NCBI GenBank assembly: GCA_964016885.1
Contig: OZ024741.1
Coordinates: forward strand, 400,148,001-400,212,000
From: Eledone cirrhosa
Lineage: Eukaryota
Direction of reading: 5' to 3'
DNA length: 64,000 bases
This document shows, piece by piece, positions 2,143-35,243 of the stretch. The position numbers and the translations under genes are program-made. The notes below the pieces were generated by a model, which was not told the origin of the DNA, did no database searches, and was given only the letters and a program-made list of their open reading frames with translations. Every line of letters starts with the position of its first letter. Position 1 is the first letter of the stretch.

Positions 2143-2321
2143 TTGCTCCAACTTAGTCCCTGTAAAGAAACAATACAGTTATTGACAAGAAAAGTTGAAT
2201 TTAATGCATGTAAGATTTCACAGCTCTAGCATCAATTCTTCTTAGTCAGCCTTTGAACTTTTCAGCCTACCCTTATATAAATATATATATATATATATAT
2301 ATATAGTTTTAATATAGAAGA

Positions 2322-2370
2322 GATTCTACAGGACTAGAACTGTTTCATTCATTAGAAATCATCAGGAATC
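2322..2370 (-). ncRNA. Minimal type I hammerhead ribozyme
   Basis: Reads gattc CTGATGA tttctaatgaat GAAA cag ttctagtc ctg TA gaatc, with a canonical core and stems I and III. Confidence 0.85.
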
Positions 2371-2413
2371 TGGGTATCAAAAAATAAAAATGGTATTTAT
2401 TTTTTGATACCCA

Positions 2414-2462
2414 GATTCCTGATAATTTCTAATGAATGAAACAGTTCTAGTCCTGTAGAATC
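2414..2462 (+). ncRNA. Minimal hammerhead motif, core variant CTGATAA
   Basis: Inverted copy of 2322-2370 with one core substitution. Confidence 0.7.
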
Positions 2463-2580
2463 TCTTCTATATTAACACTTTTATACTCTTCTATGTATTG
2501 AGTACCTTACTTACTGTGGTTACCTCCGATTCAACCCGGAATAACGTATATATATATATATATATATATATATATATATA

Positions 2581-3000
2581 GCTTTCACCGTATTTTTGAC
2601 TAAAGGAATTTTAGCCTGATAATGGGGTTTAGAACCCTCAGATAAATGGAAAAAGATGAGTACTGACGTACATGGGAGTCGAACCCACATCTTTGGTTAT
2701 CGCGACCACTGTGCTACCATTACACCAACACATCAACTGCCATTTAAACTCGCTAAGAATGTAGCTTCTAATTTGAATAGAAAGAGATGGGTGATGTGTT
2801 GGTGTAATGGTAGCACAGTGGTCGCGATAACCAAAGATGTGGGTTCGACTCCCATGTACGTCAATACTCATCTTTTTCCATTTATCTGAGGGTTCTAAAC
2901 CCCATTATCAGGCTAAAATTCCTTTAGTCAAAAATACGGTGAAAGCTATTCTATTTTCTAATTTCAAACCTGCTCACTGTTTCAAAACATACTTACTTGA
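2581..3000. mobile_element. Inverted-repeat element containing tRNA-like heads, inserted in (TA)n
   Basis: 2581-2735 is the near-perfect reverse complement of 2792-2946. The + arm has about 55 nt of extra tail before (TA)n. Confidence 0.8.
2793..2863 (+). tRNA. tRNA-like (pseudo-tRNA, SINE-type head) with a Gln-like D arm; identical inverted copy at 2664-2734 (-)
   Basis: Cloverleaf: acceptor GATGTGT/GTACGTC, A box TGGTGTAATGG, anticodon arm TGGT-CGCGATA-ACCA (no U33), T arm GTGGG-TTCGACT-CCCAT, followed by TTTTT. Confidence 0.7.
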
Positions 3001-3099
3001 TATATATATATATATATATATTAGGGATACTATTTATGGTTATGTATATATTAAAACTTTTTATAGTTATGTATATTTTAAACCCTAAACAGTGAAGGT

Positions 3100-4001
3100 C
3101 AGTAATTTATTACTACCTTATTACCAGTAAGATAAATAGCTCAATGTAATAACATCAGTTGTTCTACAGAGCAGTTATATAGAATTCACAAGAATCAAAG
3201 CTATGTTCAAAGCATTTATTCACTTACAATTGTTTCATCCAAACCTAGGCTTGGATTCTTCGGAGCATTTTTCAATGTTTGTACACATAATTGACCTCCT
3301 TTCCAACGCAAGAGACATACAGATACATATATATATATTGATGTACAGTGGAGTGGCATATATTATACTATACTATTTTTGTACAGCAATTCAAATTCAA
3401 AATCAAAATTAAAATACATTCGGCAGATAACACAGATAATGCAAGAGGATAGTTACTTATGTGATGGATGTAGAAACTATGTCTTACTTTTTCTGAATGT
3501 GAAAATGATGGTGGATACGAAAACCATAACTTTCTTTTGCTTCTTCTTTTTATTTTTCTGCACACATACTTTTTTGTTCTATACAATAAATACCCTACCA
3601 CTACAACCACCACAATAATCTTGCTTACCCGCTTGAAGTGCTTGCATTACGTGTAACACCCTGCCACACAATAATAGTATAAAAAATGAGACACACTTGC
3701 ATGCTCCACGTGTAACTAACGCATACACTACCTACTAGACCTGACTATCAAACTATCCTCTTGCATTATCTGTGTTATCTGCCGAATGTATTTTAATTCT
3801 GATTTTCATTTTGAATTTGAATTGCTGTACAAAAATAGTATAGTGTAATATATGTCACTCCACCGTAAATCAATATATATATATGTATCTGTATGTCTCT
3901 TGCGTTGGAAAGGAGGTCAATTATGTGTACAAACATTGAAATATGGTCCGAATATTCGGAGTGAATAAATGCTTTGAACATAACTTTGATTCTTGTGAAT
4001 T
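3100..4001. mobile_element. Older Penelope-like inverted pair (arms about 3183-3453 and 3751-4001)
   Basis: Diverged inverted repeat next to (TA)n. A degenerate HHR lies on - at 3222-3266 (CCGAAGA atccaagc-ctag-gtttggat GAAA caattg TA), followed by AATAAA. Confidence 0.75.
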
Positions 4002-4154
4002 ATATATATATATATATATATATATATATATATATATATATATATATATATATGTGTGTGTGTGTGTGTGTGTGTGTGTGTGTGTGTGTGTGTGTGTGTG
4101 TGTGTGTGTGTGTTTATATAAGGGTAGCCTTTCCTATATATATATATATATATA

Positions 4155-4319
4155 TAGGAAAGGCTAAAAATTCTAATTTAGTCCAGAAATAGCCGTCGAA
4201 ACGGCTTGAGCTCTGCCATCCGGGGTCATACTTTTTCCTATTTCCCACTCTACTACCCTAAGTATTGAGTACTCTGGTGCGTATGGTCCATCTGGTTCCT
4301 TACCACAGTCCCTTTGTTA
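4155..4319 (+). mobile_element. Penelope-like tail fragment (family D) with the 3' half of a hammerhead
   Basis: agccgtc GAAA cggcttgagctc.. followed by a tail with TATTGAGTAC. Homologous to 8926-9141 and flanked by (TA)n. Confidence 0.7.
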
Positions 4320-32420: not shown

Positions 32421-32465
32421 CAATAAATTCCTTTTGTTGCAACACTGACTCTCTTTTTCTGTGAT

Positions 32466-32610
32466 ATATATGGTTTTATAAATATAGTTTCCATTTATTT
32501 AATATCATTGAATATTTACTCCAGGAATTTGCTGAGTGCTCTAAATCAGTTATAAACATTTATATTTATATTTGTCGGATTTCCAACAAATTAAATACCC
32601 CTTCTACTTA
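32466..32610 (+). mobile_element. Family X Penelope-like tail
   Basis: Homologous to the reverse complement of 14147-14275 and ends in (TA)n. Confidence 0.7.
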
Positions 32611-32684
32611 TATATATATATATATATATATATATATATATATAACAAAGTGGAGGTGTTACATAGGAGATTTATTGCTTAATC

Positions 32685-32772
32685 CTGGTTACAAATGTTT
32701 CACAAGCAGCCAGCTCGTGATTTGGGTTGGCATCCCAGACCAGACTCCAAGTCTTCCTGATCCTCAGATCAG
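32685..32772 (-). ncRNA. Hammerhead motif in a Penelope-like remnant (about 32645-32790)
   Basis: Reads ctgat CTGAGGA [long domain II] GAAA catttg TA accag, then AATAAA and (TA)n. Confidence 0.6.
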
Positions 32773-32799
32773 TGTTAACACACACAAAAAAACAGTGTC

Positions 32800-34541
32800 A
32801 CTATGAGAGACTATTAAATGAGGAGAATAAATGGGAAAAAGATAGTCTGCCCAAAATCGATCATCCAATAGAAGGACCAGCGGTGCAAGTTAAAGGTAGT
32901 ATAATAAGTAAGGCAATCAAAGATATGAAGACAGGCATGGCAGCTGGGCCTTCGGAGATAGTTGCTGAGATGTTGAAGGCATTTGGAATGGTGGGACATA
33001 CTATGGTCACCCGTATAGTTAACCAAGTAATACAGAATGGGGTCATACCAAAAGACTGGCGTAGCAGCATCATCATTAACTGCTACAAGGGTAAAGGGGA
33101 TGCTCTAGATAGGGGAAACTATAGAGGCATTAAGTTAGTTGACCAGGTCATGAAGGTCACAGAAAGAGTTATAGCGCAACTAATCAGAGAGCGAATTGAT
33201 CTAGATGAAATGCAATTTGGGTTTGTGTCAGGAAAAAGTACCACAGACGCTCTTTTCCTTGTACGACAACTACAAGAGAAGTACCTAGCTAAAAGTAAAC
33301 CCCTCTACTTAGCTTTTGTAGACCTGGAGAATGCTTTTGACAGAGTCCCCCGCTCCATTATCTGGTGGGCTCTTAGAAAACTAGGTGTAGATGAATGGCT
33401 TGTGAGAGCTATACAAGCTATGTATAATGAAACAGTCAGTAAGCTTAGAATTAATAATGAATATTGTGAAGAATTTAGTGTAAAAGTTGGCGTTCATCAA
33501 GGCTCTGTCCTTAGCCCCCTCTTATTTATTATTGCCCTTCAGGCTATAACAGAGGAGTTCATGACCGGCTGCCCATGGGAACTCCTATACGCAGATGATC
33601 TAACGCTCATAGCTGAATCAATGGCTGAACTAGAAAAGAAATTCCAAACATGGAAGCATGGCCTAGAATCAAAAGGCCTTAAAGTTAACTTGTCTAAGAC
33701 TAAAGTCCTAGTTTGTAGAAAGGAAAATAAGGCACAGGTACCCTCAGGAAAATGGCCTTGCTCAGTGTGTAGGAAAGGAGTAGGCAGAAATTCAATTTTA
33801 TGTCCCAAATGCAAAGTATGGGTACATAAAAGATGTAGTGGGATCACAGGTAAACTATCTAAGAACGTAGACTTTATATGTGACCGATGCTCAGGTGCAA
33901 TAGGTAGCAAGTGTCCACAGGATACTAGCCCCTTCTATTGCCCAGAGGGTTCTATAGAAATAGTAGACACTTTCCGTTACCTGGGTGACGAAATCAGCAG
34001 TGGTGGAGGGTGTTCTGAAAGTAGAGTAGCCAGAGTCAGAACGGGATGGAAAAAGTTCAGAGAGCTTATACCGCTGTTGGCCACAAAAGGTTTCTCTCTA
34101 AAAATGAAAGTCAGATTGTATGATGCTTGTATACGAACAGCAATGCTATATGGCAGTGAGACATGGGCATTGCATGCAGAGGACCTGTGTAGACTGGAAA
34201 GGAAAGAAGCATGCATGCTCTGTTGGATGTGTAATAGTAATATACATGAATGGCAAAGCATAAATGAACTAAGTGAGAAATTAGGAATAAGAGGGATCAG
34301 ATGCTGTTTACTCGAGGGAAGACTACGTTGGTATGGCCACATGATGCGCATGAAAGACGACAGCTGTATAAAAAAGTGCAGGGCGATCAAAATTGATGGT
34401 AGTTACGGTGTAGGTAGACCCAGAAAAACCTGGGACGATCTGATAAATTTCGACCTTACACACTTGCACCTCTCTAAGACAATGTCACTGGACCGAGATC
34501 TTTGGCGCTACGCAGTAATACAGAAGACCCGCCTTGCCTAA
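32800..34541 (+). CDS. RTE reverse transcriptase with an embedded PHD-like Cys/His finger (no endonuclease)
   Basis: Motifs NYRGIKL, QFGF, AFVDLENAFDRVPR, GVHQGSVLSPLLF, LLYADD, CSVC..CPKC..HKRC..CDRC, YGSETW, LRWYGH and GRPRKTW. The first ~24 aa of the listed ORF come from flanking DNA. Confidence 0.92.
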
Positions 34542-34965
34542 GTACAAAGCGAAACCTACAGTCAGTAGGAACCTCTTAACCAAATATACACCCCAATCCA
34601 CTACCCCTACCCTATCCTCCCACGCCCGCCAACCCCACCCCCTCTCTATAAAGTTGCTACCACAACATCCAGTCCAAATAAATGAGATAAATGAGATCGA
34701 GATTGAGATCGTGTAGATGTCACGAGAAAAAAAAACACACAGTCCACGCTGTAATGTGGCCGTGTAGGTAACATGGTAAAAAGTTCCTAGTTCCACACTG
34801 TAAATGTGGTTGGTGTTAAGAAGGGCATCCAGCTGTAGAAAACCTGCCAGATAGTCCTATATGAGCGAGACACGGTCACCCGACCAACCTTGCCTCAAGT
34901 GGGATAACTCCCGTCTAACCCATGCTAGCGTGGAAAGTGGACGTTAAACGAGGATGATGATGATA
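32800..34965 (+). mobile_element. RTE-clade LINE, 5'-truncated, best preserved copy
   Basis: Uninterrupted RT frame, 3' UTR and (GAT)n tail. Confidence 0.95.
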
Positions 34966-35013
34966 TATATATATATAGTGTATATATATATATATATATA
35001 TATATGTATGTAT

Positions 35014-35243
35014 AATTACATAATAAACAACACAATATAATTATTTCATTACCGAAGGTTTCAAGAAACTAGATGTTTCTTGTAAGGAACATCTAGTTCA
35101 TTTGTCAGACAAGAATCGTGTAGTTTCTTGAAACTTTTGGTAATGAAATAATTATATTGTGTTGTTTATTATGTAATTAAATAGCTCTGTCCAATACATA
35201 GAGCACTCTTCTTTCCTCTACCTTTTTTACAGAAATACTTAAC
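35014..35243. mobile_element. Penelope-like inverted pair with a degenerate HHR (35044-35114 -)
   Basis: 35014-35071 is inverted to 35121-35178. The HHR reads CTGACAA..aactagatgtt/aacatctagtt..GAAA ccttcgg TA. The tail on the + arm is related to 9225-9330. Confidence 0.7.

Follow-up and report, generated by a model that had tools for sequence, protein, structure and literature searches.

We have analyzed a 64-kb stretch of the 3.0-Gb genome of Eledone cirrhosa (contig OZ024741.1, positions 400,148,001 to 400,212,000), hereafter called the window. It contains a cluster of Penelope-like element (PLE) ends inserted in (TA)n. An earlier note on this DNA had described six inverted pairs in which a short arm faces one with an additional tail. 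All six are present (2306–2547, 3023–4008, 8927–9145, 14147–14565, 14596–18824 and 35013–35248), each comprising a short arm (S) and a long, tailed arm (L). The first and second hairpins located 5′ of the open reading frame (ORF) are denoted HP1 and HP2. The PLE-related features are listed below (RT, reverse transcriptase; UTR, untranslated region; +, forward and −, reverse strand).

2306–2386 (−): family C S arm with a degenerate hammerhead, ending 5 nt before the HP1 position
2398–2547 (+): family C L arm with hammerhead, HP1 at 2485–2503 and a tail to (TA)n; with the 2306 arm it forms the pair 2306–2547
3023–3415 (−): family G L arm with a 153-nt tail; HP1 GCTC..GAGC at 3139–3172 (−)
3796–4008 (+): family G S arm, ending 3 nt before the HP1 position; the pair is 3023–4008
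4157–4317 (+): family D L arm, HP1 at 4247–4270; its first bases resemble, by eye, a minimal inverted S end
4402–5715 (−): family E solo L arm with a hammerhead at about 4600–4650 and HP1, with a long upper stem, at 4478–4529 (−); no ORF link
5822–8333 (−): 5′-truncated Hydra PLE of family H with an RT and GIY-YIG ORF at 6822–8333, a 3′ UTR of about 1 kb and a hammerhead; its S end lies 2 nt before the HP1 position
8360–8505 (−): family C L arm, HP1 at 8400–8418 (−)
8927–9145: family D inverted pair; L arm (−) with HP1 at 8974–8997 (−), S arm (+)
9222–9392 (−): family F2 L arm, HP1 at 9271–9291 (−) with one pair broken
9627–9717 (−): degenerate family C tail
12202–12921 (−): family F-type S arm with a Hydra endonuclease fragment upstream
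14147–14565: family A inverted pair; L arm (−) with HP1 at 14208–14227 (−), S arm (+)
14596–18824: family B inverted pair; 1.77-kb L arm (−) with HP1 at 14653–14677 (−), 2.46-kb S arm (+) with a Hydra ORF fragment at 16363–17712
18889–19004 (−): family A S arm
22229–22367: family H mini pair; S arm (−), L arm (+) starting inside HP1; the two arms have no sequence in common
32464–32609 (+): family A-like long tail, HP1 at 32518–32537
35013–35248: family F inverted pair; S arm (−), L arm (+) with HP1 GCTC..GAGC at 35184–35204

The hairpins at 4478 and 32518 were taken directly from the sequence and then folded. The pair at 3183 had been thought to fit only weakly; its L arm, which extends to 3023, holds a GCTC..GAGC hairpin with a folding energy of −9.3 kcal/mol, and the pair fits well. 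A search with the arm at 9320–9395 gave no match in the same genome.

The two ORF fragments in the window, together with a full-length relative, contain the motifs YRDDG, DKT, RWR, CxCX5C, CxxC and CxH. The single ORF of locus L461 encodes 708 amino acids with an RT as well as a GIY-YIG domain at the C terminus, and is 97.8% identical to the window ORF. DKT (for DKG) is found at 115, and RWR at 37 is a conservative variant of the RWK motif. The CxCX5C linker is seen, with CxxC and CxH around E and N and no CCHH, as defines the Hydra clade; read by eye, the GIY-YIG core holds only one Cys. A canonical type I hammerhead is present near the 3′ end, although many copies are degenerate, and family D arms lack its CUGAUGA core. 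No match was found in the PLE ORFs with Pfam.

One-sided tails and inverted copies are described in the available text of Craig 2021 (PMC8557442) and Arkhipova 2013 (PMC3846280). As far as the former describes the Hydra clade, our elements resemble it in the C-terminal GIY-YIG domain, the CxCX5C linker, DKT and the canonical hammerhead, and also in their (TA)n targets, inverted 5′-truncated copies and one-sided tail. We have assigned the ORF-linked families to this clade because their motifs match its definition in section 11 of that paper, and we regard them as divergent members on the basis of these motifs and an identity of 37–45% among relatives. Protein identity to family H is 43% for family A and 37% for B, and the tails can be aligned over 13–15 nt only. 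The PLE families had been called unrelated in the earlier note. Those linked to an ORF belong to the one clade; for the families at 4402 (E) and 3023 (G) no such tie was found, 45 E and 12 G arms having been inspected for an upstream ORF. An ORF link was seen once each for family D, family C and an F-type arm.

Positions of the arm ends

Arms were collected from the window, from 60 evenly placed 10-kb stretches (600 kb) and from search loci, giving 590 in total. The (TA)n target is evident in that 500 of these adjoin a TA run, of which 447 begin far enough upstream to be classed; duplicates were removed, and 26 satellite-array loci (from the family C hammerhead search, mostly of one array) are excluded from all counts. 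The classed ends comprise 243 S, 190 L and 14 others. S ends lie just 5′ of HP1 and L ends just 5′ of HP2, at a distance of 0–12 nt and at a short UA/AU stretch. Ends at −15 to +2 nt of HP1 number 236 of the 447, compared to 63.5 expected if ends were uniform, and the proposal that short arms stop just before a hairpin is therefore upheld. The earlier note had a single hairpin marking the arm ends; this is correct for HP1 and the S end, but HP2, which marks the L end likewise, was missed. For families H and B, 108 of 111 ends fall in the same interval of either HP1 or HP2. In the 600 kb, sampled at round-number positions with even spacing, 71 of 72 arms were S or L (91 arms in total). The availability of TA does not explain the choice of site, because 14 other alternating TA tracts (at least 4 nt) in the same references took only 4 of the 447 ends. 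Among metagenomic copies, 13 of 21 ends were located at −15 to +3 of a hairpin.

The length of the tail is the spacing between the hairpins. Tails are mostly 57–95 nt (65–90 nt had been given in the earlier note), but reach about 139 nt in family E (4402) and 153 nt in family G (3023); in the available text of Craig 2021 (PMC8557442) the tail is 30–40 bp and is ascribed to endonuclease resolution. The 5′ UTR of full-length copies begins with the tail, which continues through HP2 into the ORF. HP2 follows the L end by 3 nt in family H, 4–6 nt in B and 3 nt in A, in full-length copies from the same genome. For family A, HP2 was predicted first, and then searched for as the L end followed by CTCC. 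All 12 matches have G before CTCC, followed by the 3′ half of the hairpin, which had been left unspecified, and an AUG about 34 nt further on; in 8 of the 12 there is a tblastn match to the Hydra N terminus at the AUG. Variants of HP2 were also seen by eye in relatives of family C and one further family. Among 9 pattern matches for family D there was no full-length copy.

The 5′ ends of the arms cluster 60–79 nt upstream of HP1 in families D (105 of 128), C (19 of 36) and H (20 of 80), close to the CUGAUGA side of the hammerhead rather than at its cleavage site, and at 160–240 nt in families A, B and E; all these counts are biased by the choice of query. The clusters may mark an RNA 5′ end. 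In loci L211–L236 (G000:C28, about 30.59–30.84 Mb) a 78-bp unit, which consists of the hammerhead region of family C and ends at the S site, is repeated head to tail. The arrays could have arisen by repeated re-priming at S or by later satellite amplification.

A pair of bulged hairpins in the 5′ UTR

We compared 77 hairpins, 66 metagenomic and 11 from this genome. They are built from a 4-bp stem GCUC/GAGC, a 3′ bulge of 2 nt whose first base is U, an upper stem, and an ACU that is left unpaired. The earlier note had described an ACTC..GAGT hairpin. A conserved hairpin is indeed present, and in the window its stem is often ACUC/GAGU, but the majority first pair is G-C (66 of 77) and not A-U, which occurs in 6.

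A scan of metagenomes with an alignment of 52 proteins gave 76 Hydra-type loci. In 44 of these the ORF was preceded by 110 nt or more, and 39 were non-redundant. Their 5′ UTRs were searched with the descriptor RCTC-N-GAGYRC, into which the lower stem is built. There were two matches in 24 of the UTRs, one in 12 and none in 3. With dinucleotide shuffles a mean of 0.96 UTRs had at least one match and 0.025 had two, and any match was found in 8 of 564 ORF windows and 2 of 39 antisense controls. This enrichment agrees with the hairpin being a conserved cis signal, as had been suggested. The order in full-length elements is hammerhead, HP1, HP2, AUG, with a spacing between the hairpins of 55–75 nt in the metagenomic UTRs and HP2 about 15–50 nt before the AUG. 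At the first upper pair, HP1 usually has U-A and HP2 usually C-G (26 U-A and 33 C-G among 65 scored).

When all 77 hairpins were compared with shuffled partners, a single helix did better, namely that having the 2-nt 3′ bulge. Applied to 14 hairpins of equal length, RNAalifold returned the same structure unaided, with 14 double changes compared to 3.8 in shuffles, a result found in 0 of 500 shuffles. The upper-stem pairs covary. The same program found no pairs in 48 hairpins of mixed length, where the 5′ strand had slipped in the alignment. A model constructed from the 14 hairpins gave 74 matches in 37 other metagenomic loci (37 of the 76 loci were supplied to it). Applied to the window, it placed 9 tail hairpins in its top 10 matches, one of them a training sequence, and missed those at 14653 and 4478. 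Folding energies are −3.6 to −9.3 kcal/mol for all hairpins bar one, i.e., these are weak hairpins.

By eye, 4 of the 6 Hydra consensus sequences newly given in Craig 2021 (coral, sea cucumber, copepod) contain the motif or a compensated variant of it. The Naiad and Chlamys consensus files gave 3 scattered matches to five 9-mers, compared to 4 in Hydra UTRs, and in these files the motif was not seen outside Hydra. HP1 of family B (14653–14677) has a 20-nt run in common with HP2 of a metagenomic Hydra element (L157:429–466). With Rfam covariance models the window gave two tRNA-like matches only, and eight loci scanned at E ≤ 1 gave two weak mir-297 matches on a repeat; in neither scan did the hairpins match any family, RT-docking stem-loops included.

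Pairing of arms and the surrounding repeats

The classes of end combine in an almost invariant manner. S+L accounts for 130 of the 139 head-to-head pairs (p = 3 × 10−36 compared to 50%). One end is off-class in 7 others, S+S occurs twice and L+L never. The evenly placed 600 kb alone gave 22 S+L among 23 pairs. We also analyzed 60 family H copies with an intact N terminus, chosen from 150 matches for long open frames. Both ends could be classed in 25 near-full-length insertions, and 24 were S+L; the 3.3-kb body begins from S in 13 and from L in 11. Either arm can thus be the longer one, or the full-length body.

Short pairs behave in the same way. Mapping was tried for 60 and was clean for 43. 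Among the latter, the S arm exceeds the L arm in 15 (by as much as 726 nt), the reverse holds in 14, and in 14 the two are within 10 nt of each other. Neither arm is therefore a fold-back copy of the other, and the two ends of the cut (TA)n appear to prime independently, as the earlier note had supposed. The junctions exhibit microhomology of 1–12 nt in 18 pairs, are flush in 5 and contain insertions in 20. One insertion (L283) seems to join a family E L arm to a family H S arm; if real, this argues that two RNAs can serve one break.

The 60 family H copies also reveal where synthesis of the complementary DNA (cDNA) halts. In 11 of them a cDNA that came from the ORF side ends within HP2, a rate of 0.0088 per nt compared to 0.0016 upstream (5.5 times, p = 1.4 × 10−4), despite the weakness of the hairpins. 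Such stops fit a bound protein. The stop in HP2 was found in 6 of 19 bodies started from L and 3 of 36 started from S (p = 0.05), and this tendency to stop at the own start is only a hint of a circular template. The hammerhead is passed through a second time in 33 of the 60 copies.

A number of other repeats share the window. An inverted pair of tRNA-derived (SINE-like) sequence lies between TA runs at 2578–2949, with Rfam tRNA matches at 2664–2734 (−) and 2793–2863 (+). A different TA-adjoining repeat, with GAAA before CUGAUGA and, by eye, no GCUC/GAGC hairpin, occurs at 10432–10640, 11128–11320 and 13036–13190; as a guess, these are possibly Naiad-like ends. LINE reverse transcriptase ORFs are located at 24631–26510 (−) and 32721–34541 (+), the second with a PHD finger match, and related fragments at 1–1500, 27000–29350 and 31000–32270. 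A tandem repeat of about 60 bp occupies 35440–36000, just beyond the last pair.

A proposed initiation of reverse transcription and its alternatives

How might two hairpins in the 5′ UTR generate one short and one long arm? We think it probable that they set the S and L ends, each likely docking one RT of a paired complex on a single RNA. The docking, the dimer and the single RNA are inferred. The GIY-YIG domain would cut (TA)n, and each 3′-OH would pair by 2–6 nt with the UA-rich stretch 5′ of a bound hairpin. With one RT docked on each hairpin, both cut ends would prime on one RNA (twin priming), and the two cDNAs would grow inwards to be joined head to head by microhomology or short insertions. 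HP2 would be copied by neither primer at its start. Full-length progeny would need a circular or tandem RNA, or a jump between redundant ends, because both starts lie upstream of the ORF; RNA circles have been proposed in the available text of Cervera and de la Pena 2014 (PMC4209133). Mobility would be kept only by partial tandems, in which copying goes round a second time past HP2, HP1 and the hammerhead.

Several results weigh against this scheme. In families D, E, F and G HP2 was unseen, so that their L class is the end of the reference arm. Eight of the 21 metagenomic ends are away from a hairpin, most of them not adjoining TA, and by eye two of the six Craig 2021 consensus sequences show the motif unclearly. 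There is hardly any variation in the lower stem, and the six A-U cases all come from this one genome and may be one event. Solo S and solo L arms are common, according to a terminal-word classifier that is too noisy for counts. In favor of the scheme, the arms of one pair are more alike than other copies in 89 of 99 cases, and ends more than 3 kb apart have 7 rare variants in common compared to 0.23 when permuted, but such sharing looks the same for one RNA as for one donor locus or gene conversion. Arms do not end together more than by chance (30 of 61, null mean 25). A claim that they do, based on short spacers in 98 of 108 pairs, used a measure that saturates, and was dropped when the corrected test was not significant.

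These last points bear on a scheme in which the hairpins set the starts, each end being primed on an RNA of its own, in an asymmetric complex with HP1 of one and HP2 of the other. This agrees with the S+L rule and all the hairpin data; the arms do not end together, and the shared variants could reflect one donor locus. We consider it unlikely, since it requires an extra source of asymmetry where two sites on one RNA give S+L directly, and either site can supply the full-length body.

The earlier note had instead proposed two different RNA 3′ ends, the hairpins being processing or termination signals for ordinary end-primed target-primed reverse transcription. The ends do lie at fixed offsets from the hairpins. 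AATAAA, which was said to precede arm ends often, is found within 60 nt before the hairpin, and so before S, in only 4 of 10 reference arms. A free choice between two RNA species predicts about 50% S+L, whereas 130 of 132 pairs were observed to be so, the inspected junctions lack poly(A), and the tail runs from the start of the 5′ UTR through HP2 into the ORF. Furthermore, full-length cDNAs copy through both hairpins (33 of the 60 family H copies), and internal initiation has been demonstrated for a Poseidon PLE in the available text of Frangieh 2024 (PMC11167929). Two 3′ ends are not supported, and we consider them improbable.

Slightly less probable again is that the motif acts in DNA, as single-stranded cDNA or an extruded hairpin, directing the GIY-YIG nuclease to resolve an intermediate beside it. 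Within the text available, the tail is ascribed to endonuclease-mediated resolution by Craig 2021 (PMC8557442), and Frangieh 2024 (PMC11167929) cites a tail requirement for recognition by the Penelope nuclease; G-U asymmetry did not separate RNA from DNA. However, short insertions contain HP2 in neither arm although their L end is marked by it; its action must therefore be on the template, and the UA microhomology at the ends is what priming predicts.

Finally, it is very improbable that the inverted arm was made by fold-back and self-priming from the first cDNA, with the hairpins serving another role such as cap-independent translation: microhomology at 18 of the 43 junctions, the position of HP2 shortly before the AUG, and the self-priming proposed for rotifer Penelopes in the available text of PMC3846280 could be cited for it, but the 15 pairs in which S is the longer contradict it as a general route, S cannot supply the tail, some pairs (22229–22367) have no common sequence, and a role in translation, which could coexist, leaves the end positions unexplained.

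The initiation by twin hairpins that we favor has partial precedents. In L1 twin priming, both target ends prime on one RNA, and the result is a 5′ inversion with microhomology at its join; there, the second start is opportunistic, and no sequence is copied into both cDNAs. By contrast, both Hydra-clade starts are fixed, and overlapping sequence is copied. A small bulged hairpin fixes the start or stop of reverse transcription in hepatitis B epsilon, the telomerase template boundary element and LINE 3′ stem-loops. The LINE stem-loops are copied, whereas HP1 and HP2 lie 3′ of their start sites and would be left out of the cDNA that they launch.

The closest comparison is with the Poseidon element PAc of the green anole. 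In the available text of Frangieh 2024 (PMC11167929) there are two internal RT starts that match or bound the tail, one at +111–118; RNA is required to +172, both strands are nicked and extended, and a dimer is predicted. The genomic signature of the Hydra clade fits two internal starts of this kind, and sequence 3′ of each start would likewise be needed. In PAc the starts fall within the ORF, at a stem-loop that is rich in AC and has no homology to the target, whereas here they are in the 5′ UTR with UA microhomology and a repeated, conserved hairpin. In the PAc template as printed in that text, figures aside, the twin-hairpin motif was not seen by eye. The available text of Craig 2021 (PMC8557442) presents neither a pair of hairpins in the 5′ UTR nor a strict S+L rule, and the word hairpin is absent from its main text. 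We found no report of either in the literature searched, nor of the hairpin pair in Rfam (subscription papers and Repbase notes were not covered). The element class and the principle of two starts are therefore known; the clade-wide twin cis signal, apparently undescribed so far, and the near-absolute S+L rule are apparently new.

The mechanism that generates the one-sided tail and inverted ends is regarded by the field as an open question, as stated in the available text of PMC8557442. The twin signal and the S+L rule make it directly testable, for the two hairpins form a defined cis element from which exact predictions follow: loss of HP1 should remove S, loss of HP2 should remove L, and the spacing should set the length of the tail. 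The hairpins also provide a marker for annotating Hydra-clade ends, of which there were 91 arms in 600 kb. More tentatively, this telomerase-related clade may use a two-hairpin scaffold to load an RT dimer, so that both ends of a break would be primed on the same hammerhead-made circular RNA, copied twice. The tail, the inverted arm and the partial-tandem pseudo-LTR would follow, and the hairpin pair might be a portable cis signal for two-ended insertion at (TA)n. The twin-hairpin reading would explain the long-unexplained one-sided tail, and with it dead single copies and live partial tandems, and it bears on how a close relative of the telomerase RT recognizes its RNA.

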